Positions 2,595 through 60,263 of a stretch of DNA of 60,263 bases are shown here, one piece after another. The stretch covers positions 1 through 60,263 of the forward strand of contig JAYTTH010000316.1 of assembly GCA_043745515.1 (NCBI GenBank), given 5' to 3'. The number at the start of each line of letters is the position of its first letter. Position 1 is the stretch's first letter. Origin of the DNA: Pseudobdellovibrionaceae bacterium (GTDB lineage Bacteria; Bdellovibrionota; Bdellovibrionia; Bdellovibrionales; Bdellovibrionaceae). A model generated the notes under the pieces. The model ran no database searches and had not been told where the DNA came from. It saw only the letters and a program-made list of their open reading frames with translations. The translations under genes and the position numbers were made by a program.

Positions 2595-3134
2595 ATGAAA
2601 CTTTCGTTTATTTTAACTGTTTTGTTTTTAAATTTTGAACTAAACGCTCAATCTATCGGAACCCTTTCTTACGGCGGCACTGGTTGTCCAAAAAATAGTC
2701 TTACTTATGCTTTATCTTCAGGCCAGCAAGAACTTGTTTTGGACTACAACAGGTTTTTTGTTCGAAGTGGTCCCGGAACTAATAAATCACTGGATCGAAA
2801 GTATTGTAACCTAGCTATCCCCGTTCACGTTCCAGCAGGATATGAAATTGCATTGGCTACTGAATCTGAAGGCAAAGCATTGGTTCGAGCTACGGGAAAA
2901 GCCACCTTAAATGTGGAGAGCTTTTTTCCAGGTACGTCTGGAATTAAAAACACAAAGGTGTTCAAACTAGGCCACTATAATGTAACTATAGGGGATTCCG
3001 AAAATTCAATTGCCTGGAGTACTTGTGGTTCCGACACCATCCTCAGAATGAATATTTCGGCAACGACCCAAAAAGATGCTGCCCTTTATTTAAATCAACT
3101 TCGGTTCAAACTATTTCTTAGATCCTGCAAATAG
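2595..3134 (+). CDS. secreted protein, DUF4360-like
   Basis: Signal peptide MKLSFILTVLFLNFELNA. Conserved-looking Cys contexts GTGCPKNS, RKYCNLAIPVHVPAGY and WSTCGSDTILRMNI fit my recollection of DUF4360. Confidence 0.6.
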   Translation: MKLSFILTVLFLNFELNAQSIGTLSYGGTGCPKNSLTYALSSGQQELVLDYNRFFVRSGPGTNKSLDRKYCNLAIPVHVPAGYEIALATESEGKALVRATGKATLNVESFFPGTSGIKNTKVFKLGHYNVTIGDSENSIAWSTCGSDTILRMNISATTQKDAALYLNQLRFKLFLRSCK

Positions 3135-3150
3135 TAATTTGATTCAATCT

Positions 3151-3193
3151 CGACCTAAGGTGAGGTGACCCACTTCACTTTGGTCGAATTTTG
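3151..3193 (+). terminator. intrinsic terminator after the 2595-3134 gene
   Basis: CGACC-T-AAGGTGAGGTG-ACC-CACTTCACTTT-GGTCG forms about a 16-bp stem (two G-U pairs, one bulge). It is followed by AATTTTGAGTTT. Confidence 0.6.
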
Positions 3194-3237
3194 AGTTTCC
3201 AGCCCTTAGCTTTCGCTTATATATTACGAATTAGAGT

Positions 3238-4581
3238 ATGAAAATGAAAAACTTTTTCAAACATGTCATCGTATCTAAACAACAATTTATCCAATCGGCA
3301 GTTGTACTTTTGATCATGGGTATTACAAGCACCGCAGCCATAGGATTTTATCGCTACAAAACTCAAGAAAATATGCGCCTAAACACGTTTGCACAGCTTC
3401 AAATTTTAAAATCGGCGATTGTGCAACCGCTGTGGAATATGGATACAAAGGCCATCAAGCATATTGTGGAGTCTGTATTGGCTGACGAATCGAACTCTAT
3501 CCTTTCGATTCGGGTTTTTGATACTGAGTTGCACGATCAAGAAAATAGCATTTTAGTTTCACAAAATGGGCCGGAATGGACCAACCAAACTTTTGTTGAA
3601 TTGAAAAACCAAGATGACCATCTCTTTTTAGAATCACCAGTTTCCTACAAAGGCGCTCAACTAGGTACCATCCAGATAATTTTCAATATATCCGACATAC
3701 AGCAAGAAATGGCCAGGATATCGTTGTTACTTGCTATCGGACTTTTATTTGTCACCGGCCTTACAGCATCTCTATTTGTGACTCTTCATTTGCGGCGATT
3801 GTCAAAAGAACTGAAAAAACAAGTAGAAGAACGCACTCATCAATTGGATAGCCAAAGAATGGCCATGGTAAATTCATCTAGGTTGGCGGCACTTGGCGAA
3901 ATGTCTGCTGGCATCGCTCATGAAATTAATAATCCGTTAGCTGTAATCGAAGGAACCACGCAACTAATTTCACGAGCTGTCGATCAGCAAGAAAATCCTA
4001 AAAAAATTGAAGCCCATTTAGAAAAGATATCCAAAATGGTTACCCGTATTTCTAAAATTATTAACGGTTTACGCGCATTCTCAAGGGATGCCAGTCAAGA
4101 ACCAAAAACAGAATTTTTGGTCGAACGGTTTTTTTCTGATATTTCGGATCTTTGCCATTCCAAGCTAACTAACAAACAAATTGAAATTCAATTTGTCGTG
4201 GATGATAAAAGCACAACATTGCACGCACGGGAGGTTCAATTGTCACAGGTAATTATTAACATGATTAATAATTCAGTTGATGCAATTGATAGCCTTGATC
4301 ATAAATGGATACGGGTCGAATGCTTTTCAAATGTAAATTCCACAGTTCTTTCAATCACCGATTCAGGATTTGGAATTCCAATTGAAGTACAGAAAAAAAT
4401 GTTACAACCTTTTTTTACCACTAAAGAACAAGGTAAGGGAACCGGACTGGGCCTCAGTATCTCTATCGGTATTATTGAAGCACATCAAGGCAAGCTTGAA
4501 TATTGCCAAGGTCAAAAACACACTAGATTTGAAATCTGCCTTAAAAAACACAGTCCGACAGTACAGAAATCTGCAGCCTAA
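3238..4581 (+). CDS. sensor histidine kinase
   Basis: Two TM segments flank a periplasmic region. H-box SAGIAHEINNPL, N-box NMINNSVDA, G-boxes DSGFGIP and GTGLGLS. Confidence 0.85.
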   Translation: MKMKNFFKHVIVSKQQFIQSAVVLLIMGITSTAAIGFYRYKTQENMRLNTFAQLQILKSAIVQPLWNMDTKAIKHIVESVLADESNSILSIRVFDTELHDQENSILVSQNGPEWTNQTFVELKNQDDHLFLESPVSYKGAQLGTIQIIFNISDIQQEMARISLLLAIGLLFVTGLTASLFVTLHLRRLSKELKKQVEERTHQLDSQRMAMVNSSRLAALGEMSAGIAHEINNPLAVIEGTTQLISRAVDQQENPKKIEAHLEKISKMVTRISKIINGLRAFSRDASQEPKTEFLVERFFSDISDLCHSKLTNKQIEIQFVVDDKSTTLHAREVQLSQVIINMINNSVDAIDSLDHKWIRVECFSNVNSTVLSITDSGFGIPIEVQKKMLQPFFTTKEQGKGTGLGLSISIGIIEAHQGKLEYCQGQKHTRFEICLKKHSPTVQKSAA

Positions 4582-4582
4582 A

Positions 4583-5314
4583 CTATTTAATTCCATATTT
4601 TATTTCAAGATTTTTAAAAAATCCATCTTGTCTCATTTTTTCTAAACCTGCTTCAAAAGCCTTTGGGTCCACCGTGCTGGACTTTAAAATACCACATTTT
4701 ATAGGAATAGATTCAACCAATAAAGATTCGGCAGATTTTAAAGAACTAATTTTATGCGCTTGAACTTGCCAATGAAAAGTTCCGAGTTCTATAAAAATGT
4801 ACTGAACGCGTTTTTTTTCCAATAGACCAATGTTAATGGCTTCATTCTGAGTATCCAAGCGTTTTAATTTTCCCTGCGAGATAAGATCCTCTAAGTTTTT
4901 ATAGACATATCCTGTTACGGTTCCCAGTCTTTTTCCATTTAAATCCGACAACTTTTTGATTGCTTGAGTTCCCTTCTTCCAAACAATTCCATTGGCAAAA
5001 TGAAATAGTGGCGAGGACCAATAATACATTTCTGGCTTTGAAACCCAAGATTCATTTGTGAGGCAACGAATGTCAATTTTATCGCTAGCCACCGCAGATT
5101 CAACTCGGTTTCTAGAATAATAATGAAATTCAGATTTTGAATCCAATTGTTTTGAAATGCCTTCAAATATTTCCTTCATAGCGCCGCCAACTAGAGCTTT
5201 TTCCTTATCCACGTAGGCATACGGCTCTGTCCATGATTCGACTACAGAATAACGAATTGCCTTAGGTTTGGCGTCGGCAAGACTTAAAATAGAGATTAGA
5301 AAAAATAGTAGCAT
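4583..5314 (-). CDS. periplasmic substrate-binding protein (family-3-like)
   Basis: Signal peptide MLLFFLISILSLADA. Size and motifs (GTVTGYVY, LDTQNEAINIGLLEKKRVQY) resemble polar amino-acid binding proteins. Convergent with the kinase gene. Confidence 0.55.
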   Translation of the reverse strand: MLLFFLISILSLADAKPKAIRYSVVESWTEPYAYVDKEKALVGGAMKEIFEGISKQLDSKSEFHYYSRNRVESAVASDKIDIRCLTNESWVSKPEMYYWSSPLFHFANGIVWKKGTQAIKKLSDLNGKRLGTVTGYVYKNLEDLISQGKLKRLDTQNEAINIGLLEKKRVQYIFIELGTFHWQVQAHKISSLKSAESLLVESIPIKCGILKSSTVDPKAFEAGLEKMRQDGFFKNLEIKYGIK

Positions 5315-29862: not shown

Positions 29863-30849
29863 CTAAACATTTACCAATGAAGCACCCAATATTTCCTGAA
29901 CCATTGCTTGAACTGCGTTTTTAATTTCAACTGAGCCTTTTACTGTTCTTGCCGATCTAGATAAATCTATAATAGTTTGAAAGGATTCAGGAAATTGAGT
30001 CAAAAGAGACGGTAAATCAGGCGTAATTTCATTTTTTGAAATTCTGTATAGAAGCTCGTCTAAAACCGCCAAATGAGTTTTAGAACTATAGCTGGGCGGC
30101 TGAGCCAAATCATCAAGTACCACACCGATAGTGTAAGGTAAAATAAGTGCAGAAATATTTGGCTTAGAGACTGATTTGAAATACCAAGCGATAGCGGTAT
30201 TAACTCTTTCGGCATTGCTCTTAAGAAGAGGCCAGTGCACGTGATCCACCCCTGCAATATGGGCAATTAGATCATGAGTCCCCATAAAAGCCAGTTTTCC
30301 TTGCCGAATCAGGTTTGAAAATAAAAGCGCATCATTGTTTTCAATTTCCCAAAAGTTGGTTTGATAATATCCTTTTGATGGATCAAAACCGCCAAATAGC
30401 GAATTCATTCCCCAGGATTTTATCAAAACAAGTTCTATATTTTGCAAACCCGCAATTTTATATATGATTTCAGGAAAAATAAAAAGTGAATGAAGTGTGC
30501 CATCTTCATTACACGAAAGTTCTGGATGAATGACTTCATAGAAGCCTTTGGTCCTTAGCTCAAGTCGCTGGCTGTCCAATGAAAATATTCGCACGCCAAA
30601 TAAACCGTTCCATTCAATAAACTCGACACGCAATGATTCCCTTCGGACCATCTTAGCTTCCGGTGCACAAAAAATAAAACGAGCCAACTCGTCATTAACG
30701 GTTCCGACTTCTCTGGCAATTCCATAACTTGCAATTATCGAAGCCAATTTTATATCAGCCGAAAAGGACGTCACTTCTGACAATCGTTCAAACTCCCTTC
30801 GAAGGAGAAGAATGTCCCCCGAAGTCAAACTTACAACTTGATGCTTCAT
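29863..30849 (-). CDS. hypothetical cytoplasmic protein (328 aa), no family recognised
   Basis: Long ORF with ordinary composition. His-rich patch FMGTHDLIAHIAGVDHVHWP. Stop lies 3 nt... rather, the upstream small gene ends 3 nt before this start. Confidence 0.6.
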   Translation of the reverse strand: MKHQVVSLTSGDILLLRREFERLSEVTSFSADIKLASIIASYGIAREVGTVNDELARFIFCAPEAKMVRRESLRVEFIEWNGLFGVRIFSLDSQRLELRTKGFYEVIHPELSCNEDGTLHSLFIFPEIIYKIAGLQNIELVLIKSWGMNSLFGGFDPSKGYYQTNFWEIENNDALLFSNLIRQGKLAFMGTHDLIAHIAGVDHVHWPLLKSNAERVNTAIAWYFKSVSKPNISALILPYTIGVVLDDLAQPPSYSSKTHLAVLDELLYRISKNEITPDLPSLLTQFPESFQTIIDLSRSARTVKGSVEIKNAVQAMVQEILGASLVNV

Positions 30850-51019: not shown

Positions 51020-51559
51020 TTATCGATTGGCATTTCTGCGCGGTTTTGCTGAAACGGTTTTCTTTTGACTTTCTCGGTGCGCTTCCAAAACAGCATCTTC
51101 GATTCGCTTTGCGCGAGTTTCAGCCTTCGAGGAATCGTCAATTCGTCTAATAATAAAGTTCTTTTTTCCAGCCGTTAAGTCGTCAAAATTCAAAGTCATA
51201 CCTTCAGCACGAAGGGCAGTTGCCAAGTCTTTTGGAATTTGAATATCAGCACGGTCAAGAACAGTGATGTTCACTTTTACCTTGTCGCCTTCTTTTAGAT
51301 CTGCTTCCTTGCGAACCTTAGCCCTGACTCGGATATAGTGTTGGCCTTCCCCTGCCGGAAATAGGCTCACTTTGAAGGGCTTTGAACTATTAACACGAGC
51401 CATGACCATTACAGCTGCCTTGGTTCCTAATGCCTTAGTGACAGCGGCAGGAACCGGAATGGCGCAATAGTCCATTCCTTCAGCCCAGTTTTCAAGTCGA
51501 GAATTGAACGCCAGTTGTTTTCCAGTTATGCCATGTTTCCGTTTTGCCGCCATTTTCAT
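51020..51559 (-). CDS. DUF1905 + YdeI/OmpD-associated family protein
   Basis: The N-terminal DUF1905-like beta domain (HYIRVRAKVRKEADLKEGDKVKVNITV) is followed by a YdeI-like helical tail (FIIRRIDDSSKAETRAKRIEDAV). Confidence 0.65.
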   Translation of the reverse strand: MKMAAKRKHGITGKQLAFNSRLENWAEGMDYCAIPVPAAVTKALGTKAAVMVMARVNSSKPFKVSLFPAGEGQHYIRVRAKVRKEADLKEGDKVKVNITVLDRADIQIPKDLATALRAEGMTLNFDDLTAGKKNFIIRRIDDSSKAETRAKRIEDAVLEAHRESQKKTVSAKPRRNANR

Positions 51560-51562
51560 TTG

Positions 51563-51591
51563 ATACTACTCAATAAAATTTTTGGTGTCTA
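51563..51591 (-). promoter_or_regulatory. sigma70-like promoter (copy A of a duplicated promoter-like module)
   Basis: Minus strand: TAGACA-17 nt-TAGTAT. The -10 element ends 3 nt before ATG 51559. The module is repeated at 57288-57316. Confidence 0.45.
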
Positions 51592-51651
51592 AGTAAAGTT
51601 CGATGTCGGAGGGTGGATTTTAGGGAAATACCTCTTGAAACTTCAAGTTGT

Positions 51652-52503
51652 TTAATCACGCCCGCGTACAGCTTTCGAAAAAGCAAACAACAATAGAAGC
51701 GCACATGCCATCATGGCCGCGCCGGCAAGCTGATGTGATGATAAAGATTCACCTAAAAAAATAAAAGCTCCCAGAATGCCAAAGACGGGTTCGCTGTACT
51801 GACCCAATAGATCTAGCTGCATGTTCTTTCTCAAAGCATAAGAATGTGCAAAAAAAGCCGACGGTAAAAGAAGTGCTAAACTAATTGTCGATCCTACTGT
51901 CGCCGTATTCCAACCATTGCAGTTAATCGATCCTTTCGTTAAAGCAATCAATGCAAATACAAAAAAAGAAAGAGTGTTGGTCGTTGCGCTAATTTCGATA
52001 TCGCTTAATTCAGTCTGCCAATTGTGAATGATCCATGTGAAAAAAGACCAGGTCAAAATACTTCCAAACAACGCCGTTAAGCTTAACGAGCTCACTTGAG
52101 AGGCCGAAAAAAAATCCACAAAAATCAAAGTGCCTAAAATAGCTAAGCTGCAAATAATGAAAATTCGAATTGAAAAGTGAACCCTCATAACAAAAAGACT
52201 TATCACCGGACAAAGCGCGTAAAAGAAAACATACCAACTCACAGGCACAGCTTTCAACGCGAAGACTTGAAAGTAGTAATGGATTGAAATCGTTCCGATA
52301 CCCATCAGTACGTAAGAAATCTTCAAGCGGCGTATTTTAGAAATCGCTTTGTAAAGAAACGGAAGAAAAAACAACGAAGATAGACCTAACCGAATCAATA
52401 AAAAACTAACTTCGTCAATATTTTGAAGGCCGATCTTCGCTAAGATTGGAGACAAGCCCCATACCAAATTAGCAAACAGCACGGCCAATACAGAAAAATT
52501 CAT
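51652..52503 (-). CDS. DMT-superfamily (EamA-like) transporter
   Basis: Ten TM segments in two EamA-like halves. The start forms an ATGA overlap with the upstream ATP-grasp frame. Confidence 0.8.
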   Translation of the reverse strand: MNFSVLAVLFANLVWGLSPILAKIGLQNIDEVSFLLIRLGLSSLFFLPFLYKAISKIRRLKISYVLMGIGTISIHYYFQVFALKAVPVSWYVFFYALCPVISLFVMRVHFSIRIFIICSLAILGTLIFVDFFSASQVSSLSLTALFGSILTWSFFTWIIHNWQTELSDIEISATTNTLSFFVFALIALTKGSINCNGWNTATVGSTISLALLLPSAFFAHSYALRKNMQLDLLGQYSEPVFGILGAFIFLGESLSSHQLAGAAMMACALLLLFAFSKAVRGRD

Positions 52504-53693
52504 ATTGTCTCCGATGGCAAAGCATAAAATGCTTTTTGCTTTCCTTGCGACGTAGCCATTTGAATCGATTCAAGATATTGTTTTACGGCCACTGGTGAAC
52601 CCGAAACAATTCCAATCCAAGACCAATTGTCTTTTCCCATAGCCGGAACAGTATTTCCGAAATCTAAGATTTGTGTTACGAATACATCTTTTTTTGGACT
52701 TGAATCTAAATTTAAGAACATTGATTCTTCTTTTAAACCATGGCAACAGAGATTGACATCTGGGGCTGATGATTCCAAAATTCGCCGATTTCTTTTTCGG
52801 GAAATAGCGTGATTTTAAGAACTTCAGTGAATATGTCCACAGGCGAAGCGTTATAGGCCGAAGATAAAATTTCACCGATTCCGCCACCGCCCAATCGACC
52901 TAAATTGGCATCGATCACAAAAGCTTCATTTTGATTGACCATCAGCTCGATATGAAAAAAAGCATTTTGAATTTCACTAGCCTTAATCAAATCAAATACT
53001 TTTTCATACGCTTGATTCTTAGTCGTAACGGCCAAACGATGTTCATAAGGAAATCCCGCCCAACTTTCGGTGTTTAATATCTTACGGCGACCCGTGCATC
53101 CTAAAATTTGGGCTTCTCCATTTCGTACAAAACCTTCGAGGCTAACAAGTTCTCCAGAAATATAAGCCTGAACCATCCATTCATCAGGCTGCAGATGATT
53201 TGGAATCTGCAAATTCTGAATGTGCTGGCTATAAATTTCAACTGATTGCTCCGCATTTACAATGCAAACCCCGATGCCTCCGGCCGTACACCGCGGTTTA
53301 AAAATAACCATTCCATATTTTTTTCTGAAATCCTCAATCTGCTTGAGTGGAATTCTATTTTTATTAAAGCTGAGCGAGGGAGGGCCTAGAATCCAAACCC
53401 CGCACCTTTAATGCTTGCGCAAGCTCGACAACCAGGTGAAGTCGAGAATCCAGAAATGTAGTTACAGCTTCAATCATCCAAACTTGAGCACAAATAAAGC
53501 AAAGCATTTCAGATACCGAGGTTGTATTTATATCGAAGTAATCAAATTCTTGAATTTGCTTCAAGGTATCGCTTTGATAGTTTTTTATCTCGACTAGAAA
53601 AACAGGTTCAAAACCAAGATTTCTAATCGAATTTCCCGAATAGCGGGCACCAATATCGGATGTTTCAACTACAATTATTTTTTTTCGACTCAT
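52500..53693 (-). pseudogene. ATP-grasp ligase gene split by two frameshifts
   Basis: Pre-ATP-grasp N-terminus (53364-53693, MSRKKIIVVETSDIGARY). ATP-grasp core in a different frame (52733-53311, MVIFKPRCTAGGIGVCIV ... FHIELM ... IDANLGRLGGGG). The C-terminal part returns to the first frame (52500-52778). Shift windows are about 53366-53407 and 52733-52815. Confidence 0.65.
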
Positions 53694-53715
53694 ACGAGCT
53701 CCTCGTGGTTAAGAT

Positions 53716-54069
53716 TTAAAACAGGATGAAATTGCGGAATTTCTGGAAGATAAGAACAACTCGAAAAAACTTTTGCAATGAAGGATCTAAACTAAAACCT
53801 TCTATTTGATTCCATTGCACTTTTGTTTTCATCCATTCGAGTACAAGCGTGTCTTGAGCTTCACGGGTCGTCTGCATAAGTACTTTTTTTCCTAAACTTT
53901 CAATTTCAGTAGAAATTTTATTATAAAATTTAGGCAGGGCCTTGATGTATAAATTCCATTTTGATCCATCGACTTGAAAAATACTAAATTGATTTAACTC
54001 GTTCCAAAGATAGGCTGAAATCCAAGAGTCATTATCCTGATTGATCCAGGCCGGATGACTTTTCGTCAA
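53716..54069 (-). CDS. hypothetical protein (possibly N-terminally truncated by an in-frame TAA)
   Basis: 117-aa ORF from a TTG with no Shine-Dalgarno. The same frame continues upstream through TAA (54106-54108) to ATG 54150, which is preceded by GAGGGA. Confidence 0.45.
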   Translation of the reverse strand: MTKSHPAWINQDNDSWISAYLWNELNQFSIFQVDGSKWNLYIKALPKFYNKISTEIESLGKKVLMQTTREAQDTLVLEWMKTKVQWNQIEGFSLDPSLQKFFRVVLIFQKFRNFILF

Positions 54070-54343
54070 ATGGAGATTTCCGTGTAGACGAAAGCTTCTT
54101 CGCTTTTATCGAAGATTCTCGCGAATTTCTAATAATAATGTGTGGCCCATAGTCCCTCGCAAATAGTTTCGAGAGGGTTAATTTCAAGTTTTAGGCCAGT
54201 CTTTTTTCGGCTAGGATCGAATACAATAATAGATGACTAACTTTCATTCCGAATTTCGAGAAAGTTCGTTTTAATTTTAGGAGTTTTAAGGAAATCAATT
54301 TAGCACGAAAGTGTTACCGATGTCTTCGGCACAGACCCAGGGA

Positions 54344-54359
54344 AAATGGTGGAGACGAA
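54344..54359 (+). repeat. core repeat copy 1 (AAATGGTGGAGACGAA)
   Basis: Shares the exact 11-mer AAATGGTGGAG with copies at 55497 and 57252, all in the same orientation. The reverse complement reads ...CTCCACCATTT, resembling a CCA-encoded tRNA or tmRNA 3' end. Confidence 0.8.
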
Positions 54360-54396
54360 GACTCAGAAGTCGAACCCGTGATTCATCTTCGAATCG

Positions 54397-54819
54397 TTAT
54401 TTAATTTCAAGCTGTACAGATGGATATTGCTCTTCGTAATTTTCACCGTCACATCCAAAATACGTGACCGTTCTTTTGGAAAAATCGACATCATAACTTA
54501 CGACTCCAGCTTTCCAAGTGGCCGCCAAAAATTCAGGAAATGTACTTTTCCCTGCCTTATCAATTCGTAGTGCATGAATGAGTGCTTCACGATCAAAATT
54601 TGAAACGTCAAATGTGCCTAAAGCGAGAGGTTCTCCCTGCATAACAACAGGACCTTCTTCTGTTAAAAACAAACTCTGACAAGACGGAAGTGACCAAATA
54701 TTTCGAGTCACACCAGATTGCCGCATGACCTCCGCCAGGTAAGGAAATCCACCTATCTTTGGTCGAATCTTAATTGCAAGCTTTTGTGCTTCTAGCAAAT
54801 TCGCAATCGCTTTACTCAT
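54397..54819 (-). CDS. DUF1398-family protein
   Basis: GGFPYLAEVMRQSGV, TFPEFLAATWKAGVVSYDVDF and TVTYFG match the DUF1398 pattern. Start at MSKAIANL. The ORF is open to 54846. Confidence 0.7.
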   Translation of the reverse strand: MSKAIANLLEAQKLAIKIRPKIGGFPYLAEVMRQSGVTRNIWSLPSCQSLFLTEEGPVVMQGEPLALGTFDVSNFDREALIHALRIDKAGKSTFPEFLAATWKAGVVSYDVDFSKRTVTYFGCDGENYEEQYPSVQLEIK

Positions 54820-54897
54820 ATCAGCCGACCTTTCATTAAAAACCAAGTTCTAAACTGCGGGAACTCTTGAGGACGACCCGAGTTCTCAAACTCTGAA

Positions 54898-54908
54898 TTT
54901 GGTGGAAG
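54898..54908 (+). repeat. degenerate copy of the core repeat (TTTGGTGGAAG)
   Basis: Matches the AAATGGTGGAG core at 9 of 11 positions. Lies between the DUF1398 and DUF1772 genes. Confidence 0.35.
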
Positions 54909-55023
54909 TGTATCCACTGAACCTTACTGCTTTAAATTACAAATTTGACTTACTGTCGGGGCAAAAATAAGTCAATCTGAGCTCGGCTTTTTGAACGCTA
55001 TATGCAGGAAAAATAGGAACTTA

Positions 55024-55455
55024 TCAACTAAGAGCCCAAACAAAAATACTCGTAGCGAAGATACCAAGAATCGTTCGCACAGCATGTAACTTTCCCCAAT
55101 GCCGAATGAGATCAACAGTAGTTGAATTGATCTCGGCTTCTTTAGTTGCAAGAAGTTTTTGATTCGTGGGCATGATAACAAGCAGAGTATAGGGCCAATT
55201 TGCAAGAATAAGAACTGCGCCAAAAATCCAACGCCAGTCCTGTGATTGAGTGTAGGCATAGATACCTGCTAAGCCAGAAAGCACAGCTAAAGTGGATTGC
55301 ATGATAAAGCCACTTTTGTAGCTAGGCGCCCATTGTTTTAAAAGCTGCTTAGGTTCCAAGTTCAGACGAGCAGGCTGCTCAGCGAAATTTATGTAGAATG
55401 CAGCACCAGCAAAAAGGGCAGCGAAAACCAATGCGAATAACCCAGCTAAAATCAT
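55024..55455 (-). CDS. DUF1772 (anthrone-oxygenase-like) membrane protein
   Basis: FAGAAFYINFAEQPARL and four TM segments are typical of DUF1772. Confidence 0.75.
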   Translation of the reverse strand: MILAGLFALVFAALFAGAAFYINFAEQPARLNLEPKQLLKQWAPSYKSGFIMQSTLAVLSGLAGIYAYTQSQDWRWIFGAVLILANWPYTLLVIMPTNQKLLATKEAEINSTTVDLIRHWGKLHAVRTILGIFATSIFVWALS

Positions 55456-55496
55456 ATTTCTCCTTAAGAAATGCCTTACGCTGTAAAACGTGAGAC

Positions 55497-55512
55497 AAAT
55501 GGTGGAGGCTGA
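55497..55512 (+). repeat. core repeat copy 2 (AAATGGTGGAGGCTGA)
   Basis: Exact 11-mer shared with copies 1 and 3. Lies 42 nt upstream (minus sense) of the DUF1772 start. Confidence 0.8.
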
Positions 55513-55637
55513 AACAGTCCACTAAAGCTTTGAAACTATTGAGCATTTAAAAGTGCCCATATACCGCACCCTATATTCCAATCAGTGCCTCAAAATATGA
55601 TCTAAAATCAATCCTATTTCCGCTGAGTCAGCCTTGG

Positions 55638-55668
55638 TGAAAAATGACATTATTATTGAAAAATGTCA
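55638..55668 (+). promoter_or_regulatory. direct repeats TGAAAAATG(A/T)CA x2 upstream of abiEi (operator candidate)
   Basis: Copies at 55638-55649 and 55657-55668. Together they also contain the inverted pair TGACAT...ATGTCA. They lie 22-52 nt upstream of the AbiEi start. Confidence 0.45.
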
Positions 55669-55689
55669 AATTATACCGAATAATAAATC

Positions 55690-56271
55690 ATGACTACTGC
55701 ACAGCAATCGAAACTAAAAAAACTTGGACCATTTTCAATCGCACAAGCGAAAGAAATCGGCATCAGTCAGCAAGAGCTTTCCCTACTGGTCAAAGAAGAT
55801 AAAATTATTCGAATGGAGCGAGGGATTTACCTGCACCCTGAAGCAGATAAATCGAGAGAGCTTGATTTTAAAATCGCTTGTGCGAAATTTGGTCCCAAAT
55901 CTGCGGTCGGAGGACTATCAGCCCTTTTCTATTATAATCTAGCCGATCAAGTCCCGCAGCAAACTTGGGTCATAGTTCCGCCCAACAAGCGGGTGATTTC
56001 CAAAAACTACCGCCTTATTCGCACAAAAACCCCTCTAAAACACGGCATCATCGAAGGTGACAGGTTCCGCATAGTCTCTATTGAAAGATCTATTGTAGAG
56101 GGCTTTAAGCTCGCCAGTAAAATCGGCGAAAGAACAGCGATCAAGGCAGCTCGCACCGCCATCCAACAAAAACTCACAACGCTGAATAAAATTGGAAAAA
56201 TGGCAAAAAACCTTGGTCTGGATTCAAGCCTCACTAAATACTTCGAAGTGATCATTGGGGCCATATCATGA
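55690..56271 (+). CDS. type IV toxin-antitoxin system AbiEi-family antitoxin/transcriptional regulator
   Basis: N-terminal wHTH-like FSIAQAKEIGISQQELSLLVKEDKIIRMERGIYLHP is typical of AbiEi. ATGA overlap with the downstream toxin frame. Confidence 0.75.
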   Translation: MTTAQQSKLKKLGPFSIAQAKEIGISQQELSLLVKEDKIIRMERGIYLHPEADKSRELDFKIACAKFGPKSAVGGLSALFYYNLADQVPQQTWVIVPPNKRVISKNYRLIRTKTPLKHGIIEGDRFRIVSIERSIVEGFKLASKIGERTAIKAARTAIQQKLTTLNKIGKMAKNLGLDSSLTKYFEVIIGAIS

Positions 56272-57064
56272 CAACAAAATCAAAAGGCGAATCCATACGA
56301 ACAAAACTGACTAAACTCTCGGCGAAACTTGGCGTCAGGTATGAAAATATAGTGACAGTTTTTTGATCGAGCGATTAGTCGCTAGATTTATTTCAGATAA
56401 ATCATTGGCAAGCCATCTTGTTTTCAAGGGTGGATTTGTCGGCTTGAAGATTTACGAATCACCAAGATACACCGTGGATCTAGACGCTTTGCTGGTAAAA
56501 TCCAATATCGAATCCACTTTAAAACTTGTAAAAGAAAAAGCAGAGTCCGATTTAAATGATGGTGTATGGTTTCGCTTTGAAAGTCAGGTCGATCTAGCGA
56601 CACAAGGTGAAGTTCTAAAGAATCTTCAAAAAGCACAGATTGTTCATTTTGATTTGGGTATTGGTGATCCAATTACTCCCGCTCCCCAACAAGAAAAAAC
56701 GTCATCACTGCTAAGTGAAAATTAAGAAATCAGTTGGTCAGTTTATTCAATTGAAACTATTTGTGCAGAAAAGCTTCATGCACTGATTTCTCACGGCGAT
56801 CAAAACTCTAGATCAAAAGATGTTCATGATCTTGCGATATTTTTACCGAAAGCCGACGGTAAAGTTCTCAAGGAAGCGATTACAAAGTGTTTTGCTTTTC
56901 GCAAAACTGATGTGCCGCCAAGCTTTTTAAATGTCTTGAAAAAACTTGATACCACAAGACTTGAAAAAGGATGGGCCAGTGCCGTTGCGTCAGTTCATGA
57001 GGCTTCAAGTTTTAAAGCGATGTTTAAAACTGTGCTGGATCAAATTTCTGGTTGGGAAAGCTAA
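56268..57064 (+). pseudogene. AbiEii/DUF1814 nucleotidyltransferase toxin, disrupted
   Basis: MTTKSKGESIRTKLTKLSAKLGVRYENIVTVF is followed by a frameshift in a T6 run (56359-56364). It continues LIERLVARF...LVFKGGF...RYTVDLDAL...FDLGIGDPITP. An in-frame TAA at 56723-56725 is followed by YSIETICAEKLHAL...NSRSKDVHDL...* in the same frame. Confidence 0.75.
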
Positions 57065-57131
57065 AGTCTTACAAACCGCCTGTAAGGGATTCGATTAATT
57101 CCTAAGCCACTTTTAAAATATATTTTATTCC

Positions 57132-57290
57132 TCATTGATGACACCAGTCTTCAGCCGCCTTTTTCTTTAAAGCGACATTGGGATCGTCCTTAAGGTGGCT
57201 TCCCTTAATTTCGACAAGCTCTAATTCTGCTTGATTTTTTCTTCGCACAAAAAATGGTGGAGGCGGAGTCGCCTTCGTAACTCGTTGATA
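57132..57290 (-). pseudogene. start-less relic resembling the C-terminal PD-(D/E)xK nuclease core of a restriction/helicase-type protein
   Basis: Frame YQRVTKATPPPPFFVRRKNQAELELVEIKGSHLKDDPNVALKKKAAEDWCHQ*. The (Y)TP..F.V ... lvEiKG ... K..aa..W pattern fits. There is no start codon apart from an internal GTG. Confidence 0.3.
57252..57267 (+). repeat. core repeat copy 3 (AAATGGTGGAGGCGGA)
   Basis: Exact 11-mer shared with copies 1 and 2. The reverse complement TCCGCCTCCACCA would give a G3:U70-type acceptor arm, but no T-arm or 5' half is present. Confidence 0.8.
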
Positions 57291-57316
57291 CTATACACTT
57301 AATTTTTTGGTGTCCA
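57288..57316 (-). promoter_or_regulatory. sigma70-like promoter (copy B of the duplicated promoter-like module)
   Basis: Minus strand: TGGACA-17 nt-TAGTAT (overlapping TATAGT). Its flanks match copy A (ACTTTACTT[A/G]GACACCAAAAA and TAGTATCA). It fires into the nuclease relic. Confidence 0.4.
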
Positions 57317-57384
57317 AGTAAAGTCCAAGTTGGTGTGGCGTATTTTGATGATATCGTTGGTGAGAAGATGGGATATGGCGGGAA

Positions 57385-57963
57385 CTACATTTCCTTCGTA
57401 ATGATCTTCTCGATTCTTTTATCTGGAATTAACCAAATCAGGGCCACTAACGTGTATATTGCAAACGACACTTTCGGCATCCAAAATGAGACAGGGATTC
57501 CTAAAATATAGCATCCCAAGGAAATATGTTCTTTAAACTTGTTTCCAATAGCCTTGTGAATAGTTGAATCAGAGTCGTGATTCTTTAATAAGCTTAATGG
57601 GACGAAGTAGTAACTAACTGCACAACCCAGCAGTATTATTCCATAAAGCGTAACAGTCATATCTTCGAAGTGGTTTTCCCCCATCCAGCCCGATGCGAAT
57701 GGAATAAGTGACAGCCAAAAGAGCAGAAACATATTTGCCCAAAGTACACGCCCATCAACACTTTTGACGGATTGAAACAGATGATGGTGGTTATTCCAGT
57801 AAATGCCCACGTACAGAAAGCTAATGACATAGCTCAAGAAAACAGGAAACAAGTTGAAAAGTGCTGACAATGAAGCTTCATGCGGCACTTTTATTTCTAG
57901 AACCATAATAGTGATAATAATTGCTATCACACCGGCACTAAACGCCTCTAAACGACCTTTATG
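57385..57963 (-). CDS. TMEM175/DUF1211-family putative K+ channel (paralog 2)
   Basis: RLEAFSAGVIAIIITIMVLEI, YVGIYWNNHHHLF, WLSLIPFASGW. Start at MHKGRLEAF by analogy with paralog 1. The ORF is open to 58011. Confidence 0.75.
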   Translation of the reverse strand, partial: HKGRLEAFSAGVIAIIITIMVLEIKVPHEASLSALFNLFPVFLSYVISFLYVGIYWNNHHHLFQSVKSVDGRVLWANMFLLFWLSLIPFASGWMGENHFEDMTVTLYGIILLGCAVSYYFVPLSLLKNHDSDSTIHKAIGNKFKEHISLGCYILGIPVSFWMPKVSFAIYTLVALIWLIPDKRIEKIITKEM

Positions 57964-58018
57964 CATAGCCGCACTCCCACTGTGCTCCCAAGATAATTTC
58001 GGGGGAGCCATCCATCTT

Positions 58019-58801
58019 TTACTTATTTAATGCTTTTATAATTAATTGCGCAACGGCTTTGCCAGAGTTTTGCTGTTGACCAGTAATAAGGTTCTTATCT
58101 TGGATCGCAAATGGCGAAAACGCAGGCTTGGCAACATACTTTGCGCCTATTTTTTTTGCCTCGTCCTCAATCCTAAACGGCATTACCTTCTGACCGACTA
58201 CTTTATCTGCAAAATCTTCTTCAGAGTTGGCAAAACCAGTCATCCGTCTGCCCTTAATAAAGGGCTTTCCATTTTTATTCTTTAAATCAAGTAGCAAAGC
58301 TGTACCATGGCAAAGTGCCGCCGTAGGTTTGCCCGTGGTGTAGAAGTCCATAAAGAGTTTTTGCAATTCATGATTATTTCTAAAGGTAAACATTGGTGAC
58401 TGACCACCAGCAATAACGATGGCTTTATAGTCCCCCAGTTTGACTTGCGAAATTGGCATCGTATTTTCCCAAAGTTTTGCTAACTCTGGCGTGTTTATAA
58501 AACCCATAGTAATCAAATCATGCTTTGAATATCCCGATTTATCACGAGGATCACTGTAGGCATCAAGCTCAACGTTCCCACCACTAGGGCTGGCAATTTC
58601 AACAGTATAGCCTGCTTCGGTAAATTCCAGGTAGGGATGGGTAAACTCTGCACCCCAAAAACCAACTGGCCAACCTAGTGTCGTCGACTTAGACGGGTTT
58701 GCTACCACTATTAAAATTTTGCCTTTTGAAACTTGCTGATCTGTCGCATGTGCGCTTGAAGCAAAGACAGATAGAAGTGCTGTAATTAAAATTTTCTTCA
58801 T
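58019..58801 (-). CDS. secreted DJ-1/PfpI-family (type 1 glutamine amidotransferase-like) protein
   Basis: Signal peptide MKKILITALLSVFASSAHA. Nucleophile elbow AALCHG. Confidence 0.8.
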   Translation of the reverse strand: MKKILITALLSVFASSAHATDQQVSKGKILIVVANPSKSTTLGWPVGFWGAEFTHPYLEFTEAGYTVEIASPSGGNVELDAYSDPRDKSGYSKHDLITMGFINTPELAKLWENTMPISQVKLGDYKAIVIAGGQSPMFTFRNNHELQKLFMDFYTTGKPTAALCHGTALLLDLKNKNGKPFIKGRRMTGFANSEEDFADKVVGQKVMPFRIEDEAKKIGAKYVAKPAFSPFAIQDKNLITGQQQNSGKAVAQLIIKALNK

Positions 58802-58818
58802 TGATGATTCTCCTTTTT

Positions 58819-59457
58819 TTAATTTTCTTTCACGAGCGAAAATGCAAATTCTCGACCCATGCCGAATTTATAAGCCGTCTTGATCCATAAAAGTGCGAAT
58901 GGCTCTAAAAGGCGGCTCGACTTAATGTCCCCAGCCTCAAGCGGCTGAAATCCAATTTCTTGGATAAGATTTTGGGTTTTGTGACGTGCCTCTTCGTCAT
59001 TACCACAAAAGTACATAGCTACTTTTCGATCCTCTATGGTTGGATTGGCCATTATATTGAATCCAACCGTATTGAATGCTTTTATAACTTTTGTCTTTGG
59101 TAAGCTTCTCTGCAAGGACTCGCCACCTGAATCATCACCAGATATGACAAGACCAGATAGGTCTATTTTCAGCGGATTCGTGCAGTCGACTAATATTTTT
59201 CCTTCAAGATATTTAGAGTATTCCTTAGCTACTGCTTCTACTGAATTCCAAGGTGTAGCTAAAAAAACAATCTCACTGCTTTCAATAGATTCCAGCACGG
59301 ACATGACCTGAGCGTTTGCACCGATCGACATTGCGAGTTCATTTACTTGCAAGTTCGATATATCCCTTGCCCCAAGAAACAGAGAGTGGCCCTTGGCGCC
59401 AAACCTTTTTGCAGGCGTACCGCCAACTTGCCCTGTGCCGATAAAACCAATTTTCAC
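58819..59457 (-). CDS. NADPH-dependent F420 reductase-like / NAD(P)-binding oxidoreductase
   Basis: Rossmann motif MKIGFIGTGQVGG. GTG start with AGGAGA upstream. Divergent from a LysR regulator. Confidence 0.7.
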   Translation of the reverse strand: MKIGFIGTGQVGGTPAKRFGAKGHSLFLGARDISNLQVNELAMSIGANAQVMSVLESIESSEIVFLATPWNSVEAVAKEYSKYLEGKILVDCTNPLKIDLSGLVISGDDSGGESLQRSLPKTKVIKAFNTVGFNIMANPTIEDRKVAMYFCGNDEEARHKTQNLIQEIGFQPLEAGDIKSSRLLEPFALLWIKTAYKFGMGREFAFSLVKEN

Positions 59458-59529
59458 GTTTAATCTCCTTTAATTAACCTAATTATGACCTCTATTTAAA
59501 TTGAAACAAGATACTTAATATGGGAATAC

Positions 59530-59550
59530 TTGTTCCATATTATGGAACAA
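59530..59550 (+). promoter_or_regulatory. LysR-type operator candidate (T-N11-A style inverted repeat)
   Basis: TTGTTCCAT-ATT-ATGGAACAA has perfect 9-bp arms. The right arm contains the LysR start codon at 59542. Confidence 0.5.
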
Positions 59551-60263
59551 TACCCAAATCTAGAATCAATTTTTCTTTTTATAAAGGTTGTCGAGTCATC
59601 AAGCTTCTCTAAAGTAGCCAAGCAGCAAAACGTACCTAAGGCTACCCTCAGTAGAAAAATCAATCAGCTTGAAAAATTTTATGGCGCTCAACTGCTTGTC
59701 AGAAATACTAGACACATTCAGTTGACTGAAGTTGGACGTGAAATTTTTCACAAATCAAACTCACTTTTGTCTTTACTTGAGGAAACTAAAGCCGATGTTT
59801 CAAAAAAAAAAGAACTGCCACACGGTCTTCTAAGAGTTACTGCAGGAGTGGAGTATGGCTTAAGCGTGGTTTCGCCTTTGGCAAATGCGTATTTAAAGAA
59901 ATTCCCTGATATAAACGTAGAACTCGATCTGACTGGACGTAGAGTTGATTTGATATACGAAGGATTCGATCTTGGCGTAAGAATTGGTCCTCTTGAGGAC
60001 TCGTCACTCGCAGTGCGAAAAATCGGGTCTTTTAAATATGGTCTTTTTTGTAGTCCAAAATATTTTAATGAAAACAAAATTATGAGTGTGGAAAAGTTAT
60101 CCAAAGTAGCTACTGTGGGGTTCACCAGGACGGGCAATAAAAAGTCATGGACCCTCGTTAATAAACTCGAAGAAAAAGCTATCAACGTAATGCCTAGATT
60201 GGTTTCAAACAATTACTGGGCGTTACTAAGTGCCGCTGAATCAGGAATGGGTGTAGTTTTCAT
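59542..60263 (+). CDS. LysR-family transcriptional regulator (3' end beyond the window)
   Basis: MEQYPNLESIFLFIKVVESSSFSKVAKQQNVPKATLSRKINQLE wHTH, then a LysR substrate-binding domain. The frame is open to the window edge. It is absent from the ORF track because it has no stop. The 59748-60212 minus ORF is its antisense shadow. Confidence 0.85.
   Translation, partial: MEQYPNLESIFLFIKVVESSSFSKVAKQQNVPKATLSRKINQLEKFYGAQLLVRNTRHIQLTEVGREIFHKSNSLLSLLEETKADVSKKKELPHGLLRVTAGVEYGLSVVSPLANAYLKKFPDINVELDLTGRRVDLIYEGFDLGVRIGPLEDSSLAVRKIGSFKYGLFCSPKYFNENKIMSVEKLSKVATVGFTRTGNKKSWTLVNKLEEKAINVMPRLVSNNYWALLSAAESGMGVVF

Follow-up and report, generated by a model that had tools for sequence, protein, structure and literature searches.

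Short direct repeats in a Pseudobdellovibrionaceae contig as probable displaced 3′ ends of ssrA left by serial island insertion

Repeats in the window match the terminus of ssrA

The stretch of DNA analyzed here (the window; 60,263 nucleotides [nt]) is contig C316 of a 3.8-Mb metagenome-assembled genome (MAG) of a Pseudobdellovibrionaceae bacterium (G000), which comprises 536 contigs and is 84% complete. Within 3 kb near its high-coordinate end, the 11-mer AAATGGTGGAG occurs as three exact plus-strand copies, at positions 54344 (copy C), 55497 (copy B), and 57252 (copy A). These repeats are very probably displaced 3′ ends of the organism's own transfer-messenger RNA (tmRNA) gene, ssrA, which originated from serial insertion of genomic islands and their subsequent decay. 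A first-pass annotation, made from the sequence alone, had proposed that the repeats are scars of serial integration, and this reading is now supported by the match to ssrA, the rarity of the motif, the presence of integrases near ssrA, and synteny with related genomes.

The three same-orientation copies reported in the first-pass annotation are borne out and exceed what base composition would produce: 0.03 copies are expected in the window, and none of 100 dinucleotide-preserving shuffles reached three. The whole genome contains five copies, the three in the window and those at C168:272 and C168:27552, all of which lie at ssrA or at island boundaries. About two copies would be expected genome-wide by our own estimate from base composition. 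A motif found five times in 3.8 Mb is not a common one, which was a check that the first-pass annotation had named. When up to two mismatches are allowed, the window holds 26 matches compared with 19.8 in the shuffles; because such counts are at chance level, a weak fourth copy (copy D) was validated by homology only.

The ssrA gene, the start of which is separated from contig C168 by a contig break within the gene, is intact once contigs C270 and C168 are joined over a 71-nt overlap. The joined sequence encodes a 353-nt tmRNA (ARAGORN) with a match to RF00023 (Rfam) and the tag ANENVAMAA, and it ends in GGGGGTTCAATTCCCCCCGCCTCCACCA, followed by TTTTCCCC. A search for an intact tRNA or ssrA gene with a matching 3′ end, as the first-pass annotation had recommended, thus leads to an ssrA gene ending in ...CCGCCTCCACCA. 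With the ssrA terminus, copy A shares CCGCCTCCACCATTTT (16 nt) and copy B shares GCCTCCACCATTT (13 nt), while copy C shares CTCCACCATTTTCCC (15 nt) with the ssrA end and trailer, so that the extended similarity claimed for the copies also holds. No short sequence in the genome resembles the ssrA end more closely than copies A, B, and C, if one sets aside the island boundaries on C168 and C226 and a tRNA-Phe gene on C347; the T-arm of this tRNA gene, like its repeat, corresponds to another part of the ssrA 3′ domain. At most 11 nt are common to these copies and any of the 21 tRNA 3′ ends detected in the MAG, and neither ARAGORN nor Rfam identified a tRNA, tmRNA, or other Rfam match inside the window itself.

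All ssrA-derived copies in the window are intergenic and all retain the CCA end; their orientation and position relative to ssrA are deduced from synteny in three related contigs (G005:C85, G004:C15, and G006:C35; see below). The fourth copy is real, as 49 nt of it are 88% identical to the ssrA end and trailer of the congener G004, but it had been described as a 9-of-11 match at 54898, and the match is in fact 8 of 11, at 54897, which taken alone is at chance level. Likewise, the statement that no copy has a T-arm needs qualification for copy C, which is preceded by a T-loop-like GGGTTCGAC that aligns with the ssrA T-arm, although no T-arm is formed. We also considered GGGTTCGAC as a copy of the trailer hairpin; the alignment favors the ssrA 3′ domain, as a preference only.

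Integrase-bearing islands adjoin ssrA

No integrase gene (PF00589) exists on C316. Integrases are found next to ssrA, where the first-pass annotation had suggested looking for one. Downstream of ssrA, C168 carries a helix-turn-helix gene, a tyrosine integrase gene (388 amino acids [aa]), a DnaB-like helicase gene, a short integrase gene (210 aa), and a TOTE AEP-primase/helicase gene, and the further 11-mer at C168:27552 closes this 27-kb integrase-bearing island. At 170 nt after this ssrA copy, C168:27721-27997 encodes the N terminus of a P4-type integrase (PF13356; E value, 6.6e-28) that is cut by the contig end and continues on C226, with the catalytic part at C226:406-792. C226 ends in a 24-nt ssrA fragment reaching from the T-loop to CCA, plus a terminator-like trailer. 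Because the crossover positions on C168 and C226 differ, at least two island types use ssrA. The combination of a P4-type (Arm-DNA-bind_3) integrase with an ssrA-derived attachment (att) site is therefore present on the neighboring contigs and not in the window.

Contig C168 (27,997 bp) is base-for-base identical to G005:C97, and the two MAGs are listed as different species of one genus; this is probably one assembly contig placed in two bins. We assigned it to G000 because G005 has its own ssrA 3′ part, on C85. Overlaps of contig ends join C270 to C168 and C271 to C316.

The last gene of the 27-kb island (C168:24948-27410; L007:11949-14411) encodes an 820-aa TOTE AEP-primase fused to a helicase (PF22548; E value, 1.3e-89), which is defense cargo at the attR end of the island. 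Two tRNA loci of the same MAG are worth recording as well. The tRNA-Phe gene (G000:C347:3087-3162) has an approximately 55-nt direct repeat of its 3′ half, beginning in the anticodon loop, about 2 kb downstream (span, 3087 to 5225), which is another very small island or remnant, with an anticodon-loop sublocation. At the tRNA-Ala(GGC) gene on G000:C228 (322 to 1009), a tyrosine integrase gene lies on the opposite strand at a distance of no more than 150 nt, and this locus is probably a further island at a tRNA or tmRNA gene (tDNA).

A conserved island right end terminates in copy A

Copy A finishes an element of about 130 nt, here called the family-1 right end, which contains ACTTGGAC direct repeats. 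The sequence upstream of copy A is 92% identical over 48 nt to C168:27482-27529, which lies upstream of the 11-mer at C168:27552. In the genome, the right-end profile (nhmmer) matches at copy A (E value, 1.5e-42), at C168:27416-27577 (2.8e-35), and at positions 51558 to 51639 of the window (2.3e-9). Elsewhere, the right-end pattern matches nine species-representative contigs, nearly all of them labeled as Pseudobdellovibrionaceae MAGs, and 13 metagenome contigs, while viral contigs yielded none. A recognizable (C)CTCCACCA-like core terminates the element, always at the same spacing, in 21 of these 22 further contigs; the remaining one (L084) reads CCTCCGCCA at the core position. A promoter-like TGGACA-17-TAGTAT at 57316..57288 points outward, toward the core. 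A comparison of 23 loci shows that most of them have retained its -10 hexamer, which lies outside the search pattern, in the form TA[GA]TAT.

The match at 51558 to 51639 has no core and lies at the edge of the zone shared with G005. It sits on the start of a DUF1905/YdeI-like gene, and its TAGTAT ends 3 nt before the ATG. To judge from this spacing, transcription of the DUF1905 gene may now start at a promoter of island origin and yield a leaderless mRNA. The DUF1905-type gene of G005 has a different 5′ region.

A comparison of the ssrA ends of G004, G006, G008, C168, and C226 with copy D of the window revealed three terminator-like trailers following ssrA or its copies in the genus (TTCAGAGTTTGAGAACCCGGGTCGTCC.., TTTAAATAAAAAAGCCAACCC..GGGTTGG, and TTTTCCCCGTAC..ACGGGG). 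Each of these was probably supplied by the left end of a different island family, in which case the islands would provide the working terminator of ssrA.

The outer part of an island stack

The features of the window between 51.6 kb and the contig end are listed below from high to low coordinates; gene identities in alpha to delta are those given by Pfam.

57385..60261, both strands: cargo of island alpha, which ends at copy A and is cut by the contig end
59530-60261, plus: LysR gene (alpha)
58819-59457, minus: F420-type oxidoreductase gene (alpha)
58019-58801, minus: DJ-1/PfpI gene (alpha)
57385-58011, minus: TMEM175 channel gene (alpha)
57238..57396, minus: family-1 right end, about 130 nt, finishing in copy A (nhmmer E value, 1.5e-42)
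57251..57266, minus: copy A, displaced ssrA 3′ fragment CCGCCTCCACCA plus TTTT, an exact 16-nt match to the ssrA terminus
55508..57250: remnant beta (1.75 kb), AbiE genes and the relic of a truncated gene
57135-57248, minus: 38-codon 3′ relic of a truncated gene (beta), no Pfam match
about 56268-57064, plus: AbiEii pseudogene, fragmented (beta)
55690-56271, plus: AbiEi gene, intact (beta)
55497..55509, minus: copy B, GCCTCCACCA plus TTT, an exact 13-nt match to the ssrA terminus
54909..55496, minus: remnant gamma (0.6 kb), a single gene and about 120 nt aligning weakly with the family right end
55024-55455, minus: Anthrone_oxy/DUF1772 gene (gamma)
54858..54908, minus: copy D, CTTCCACCA and then trailer AATTCAGAGTTTGAGAACTCGGGTCGTCC, 49 nt of which match the end and trailer of ssrA in G004 (88% identity)
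54355..54857, minus: remnant delta (0.55 kb), a single gene
54397-54846, minus: DUF1398 open reading frame (ORF) (delta), ATG at 54818, stop at 54397
54340..54378, minus: copy C, CTCCACCATTTTCCC preceded by GGGTTCGAC..TCTTCGT, a diverged ssrA T-arm-like stretch upstream
51640..54339, minus: remnant epsilon, apparently a decayed operon (an ORF of no known kind, a fragmented ATP-grasp gene, and an EamA exporter gene)
51558..51639, minus: core-less family-1 right-end relic with TAGACA-17-TAGTAT (nhmmer E value, 2.3e-9)

Pfam confirms the gene labels of the first-pass annotation (DUF1398, DUF1772 [Anthrone_oxy], AbiEi, and a broken AbiEii), with one exception. The “nuclease relic” (57135 to 57248, minus strand, 38 codons) could not be substantiated as a nuclease, as this 38-aa sequence has no match in Pfam, and neither the genome nor the fetched loci contain a relative.

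Homologues of the remnants exist in other genomes. The AbiE genes of beta have intact counterparts in G006:C35, in which 6.7 kb, containing genes for Fic, a PAS histidine kinase, and an NmrA-like protein, separates a copy-A-like end from AbiEii/AbiEi; in the window, only 0.2 kb with the truncated gene remains between copy A and AbiE, and AbiEii is broken. AbiE genes near ssrA copies also exist in G009:C106, in G001 (L037:14343-15711), and in L085, and AbiEi/AbiEii modules, which in L085 and G001 stand in unrelated contigs, appear to be common cargo on the attR side of these islands. The DUF1772 gene of gamma was found in only one of 120 other genomes of the family that were searched (G084, which belongs to another genus; 82% aa identity), where no other gene separates it from an intact right end and an ssrA core, in a 1.34-kb integrase-less unit composed of core, HigB, HigA, DUF1772, and right end. 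The trailer of copy D follows ssrA cores in about eight other contigs, and in L074 a trailer of this type is again directly followed by a DUF1398 gene (78% aa identity). The stretch upstream of copy C is identical to G009:C106:4188 at 26 of 31 nt. It can also be aligned to the T-arm region of ssrA and to the right end of a 12.8-kb island in G004, and delta therefore looks like a miniaturized island of the G004 type, as far as alignment can tell.

The zone downstream of ssrA is variable among congeners

The congeners G004, G005, and G006 were used for macro-synteny. In G005:C85, the 3′ part of ssrA lies at the contig end, and about 7 kb farther on, 21 kb is colinear with positions 30,000 to 51,526 of the window at 82 to 85% identity; this orientation places ssrA beyond the high-coordinate end of the window, on the minus strand. 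The same order and orientation are seen in G004:C15, which has ssrA at 56.2 kb (minus strand), a DUF1398 homologue at 29.3 kb, and window-homologous genes at 0.6 to 12.9 kb, and in G006:C35, which has a copy-A-like end, AbiE, DUF1398, and, farther on, a homologue of the 40-kb region of the window. Between these anchors, the gene content differs in every species compared. Except for the 89-nt right-end element, the window from 51.6 to 60.3 kb has no counterpart in G005. The synteny check proposed in the first-pass annotation thus came out in favor of its reading: the segment from 51.6 to 60.3 kb varies among congeners, whereas that from 30 to 51.5 kb is conserved and located downstream of ssrA. 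Variation is seen on a small scale too, as one different cassette exists in G009 between AbiE and a copy-C-like core, at the place where the window has two.

A recurrent type of very small unit was encountered in this comparison. Integrase-less mini-islands of 1.3 to 1.6 kb, composed of an ssrA core, HigB (Gp49), HigA (HTH_37), one cargo gene, and the family right end, are present in G005:C85 (L061), in G084:C81 (L068), and in L067, that is, in three genomes of at least two genera, at 84 to 85% nucleotide identity. Only the cargo gene varies, being a 229-aa ORF in G005 and DUF1772 in G084.

Origin of the repeats

The probable course of events is as follows. The att site of islands encoding a tyrosine integrase would include a short stretch identical to the ssrA terminus, and these islands would recombine with the end of ssrA. 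Integration would regenerate ssrA at the near side of the island, and the old terminus would come to lie at the far side, as a direct repeat. Later islands would each enter the regenerated ssrA and push the older ones outward, and deletions would strip the older islands of their integrase ends and of most of their cargo. The segment from 51.6 to 60.3 kb would then be the outer part of such a stack, with at least five remnants (alpha to epsilon), four cores (A, B, D, and C), and one core-less right end. The order of insertion and the deletion history follow from this model, in which C316 would be linked to the ssrA region and the copies in the window would now be inactive.

Several observations weigh against this explanation. 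The ssrA gene is on another contig, and no end overlap ties C168 or C226 to C316. C168 also occurs, base for base, in the G005 bin, and its placement in G000 rests on exclusion. With 84% completeness and only 21 tRNAs found, a tDNA with a similar end may have escaped detection. Copies B and D match the right-end profile weakly (6 to 9 bits in a 3-kb search, with 8.6 bits for the 40 nt upstream of copy B), albeit in the correct register. Finally, G004 and G006 have a DUF1398 homologue with no ssrA copies beside it, and DUF1398 may therefore be either island cargo or an old resident gene. In both genomes this homologue follows a short regulator-like gene (MarR-like by reading of its C terminus), and no integrase was found near DUF1398 in G006, G004, or G009.

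Two explanations would dissociate the repeats from ssrA. Because tRNA-Ala genes typically end in CTCCACCA, the copies could have been derived from another tDNA such as tRNA-Ala, an idea favored by the small number of tRNAs recovered from the incomplete MAG and by the integrase adjoining tRNA-Ala(GGC) on C228. However, the detected tRNA-Ala ends in GGGTCCACCA and has only 7 nt in common with the copies, while the matches to ssrA are 13 to 16 nt long and reach into the trailer. In addition, the right end in most other loci finishes in the ssrA-type core CGCCTCCACCA or a close variant, and synteny sets the region downstream of ssrA, so that a source other than ssrA is hardly credible. Scarcely more probable is the alternative raised in the first-pass annotation, namely, that the 11-mer is a cis-regulatory motif (a promoter, operator, or terminator) shared by the downstream minus-strand genes and unrelated to ssrA. 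Gene starts do follow copies B and D, at distances of 45 and about 80 nt, and the family right end has a promoter-like element whose -10 hexamer is widely kept. Yet the 11-mer is confined to ssrA and island boundaries genome-wide; the promoter-like hexamers lie upstream of it and not inside; and the intervals from the copies to the gene starts contain no predicted promoter-like site. Promoter-like sites in the region number 14, compared with 13.7 in shuffles, terminator-like sites likewise show no excess, and the hairpins around the four copies of the window fold no better than shuffles (the right ends of C168 and G006 fold at z scores of about -2.2). As an account of where the repeats came from, a regulatory motif is thus largely to be discarded; what survives of it is that copy A tips a conserved island end with an outward promoter-like sequence.

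A different question is whether the units are really dead. Small units that lack an integrase but each retain an ssrA core and a right end might still be mobilizable, in the manner of cis-mobilizable elements (CIMEs) or cassettes, and be excised, shuffled, or cotransferred in trans by the ssrA-specific integrases of neighboring islands. The single ORFs are compact and intact, with flanks of 45 to 120 nt; the 11-mer is perfect in three copies despite otherwise dissimilar flanks; and the cassettes at the equivalent place differ between G009 and the window. Moreover, the HigBA mini-islands with one further gene have both ends in all three genomes, integrases reside on C168 and C226, and the concept has been published for Dehalococcoides ssrA islands without integration modules (PMC3146451). 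On the other hand, neither excision nor empty sites are in evidence, AbiEii has become a pseudogene, a truncated gene directly follows copy A, and the right ends of B and D are barely recognizable. The perfect 11-mer is of little help here, since the core at attR is chromosomal and short intact cores are expected in dead scars too. We therefore regard continuing mobility as unlikely. Equally doubtful is the more specific view that the one-gene units form a working, integron-like cassette store at ssrA, in which each unit would be made up of a gene, a right end of about 130 nt with an outward promoter, and an ssrA core, the resident tyrosine integrases would excise, reorder, or exchange the units in trans, and the promoter of a unit would drive the next gene. 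Decayed remnants of ssrA-specific islands remain the preferred reading.

Comparison with known systems

In the established model, a piece of the tDNA is part of attP; the gene is restored upon integration, with the displaced 3′ fragment left at the far boundary, and reuse of the site gives rise to tandem arrays (PMC4383910). The window and its neighboring contigs share with the Islander signature (Hudson, Lau, and Williams, 2015; PMC4383910) an intact ssrA gene, terminal 3′ fragments as direct repeats in a tandem array, the intergenic location of these fragments, and tyrosine integrases (including the P4-type, Arm-DNA-bind_3) on the ssrA-proximal islands of C168 and C226. The units of the window differ in that they have no integrase and measure 0.55 to 1.75 kb, and they would be rejected both by the integrase filter and by the 2-kb minimum (range, 2 to 200 kb); for these reasons, they are best called remnants.

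A close precedent is found in Dehalococcoides, in which ssrA-specific islands occur in tandem and many units without an integration module have been discussed as cis-mobilizable or as fixed remnants (McMurdie et al., 2011; PMC3146451). Multiple direct repeats of the ssrA 3′ end (in the window, presumably downstream of ssrA), a hypervariable zone, conserved sequence beside each repeat, and the many units without an integration module are common to both. However, the Dehalococcoides system employs a serine recombinase, DsiB, and a 20-bp repeat starting in the T-loop, whereas tyrosine recombinases are involved here, the core consists of the last 9 to 12 nt plus a T-run, and the units are much smaller, with one or two genes. 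CIMEs (Pavlovic et al., 2004), insofar as they are described in PMC3146451, likewise have att-derived flanks, have no recombination or transfer genes, and stand in tandem with integrase-bearing islands. In the window, ssrA cores flank beta, gamma, and delta, and the right end at copy A, the ssrA-proximal boundary of beta, belongs to the same family as that of the C168 island; the units differ from CIMEs as described there in that their mobility is hypothetical and in that several carry pseudogenes. The resemblance to integron cassette arrays (one-gene units in one orientation with short repeats between them) is superficial, as the window has no IntI, attI, or Pc, and its repeats are ssrA termini and not attC palindromes. 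The lack of an integrase in the window and the identity of the repeats with the ssrA terminus rule out an integron cassette array.

Implications

The array in the window is a new example of an established phenomenon, and the picture of tDNA-targeted integration is unchanged by it. As a worked example, it demonstrates that a fragmented MAG can suffice to identify the gene from which a bare 11-mer repeat came. It also adds two modest extras, a conserved island end that bears a promoter-like sequence and recurrent integrase-less mini-units, and the conserved right end can be used to find such islands in metagenomes. For the Pseudobdellovibrionaceae, the zone downstream of ssrA emerges as a hypervariable store of accessory genes, which holds defense genes (AbiE, TOTE, Fic, and HigBA) together with small stress and detoxification genes.

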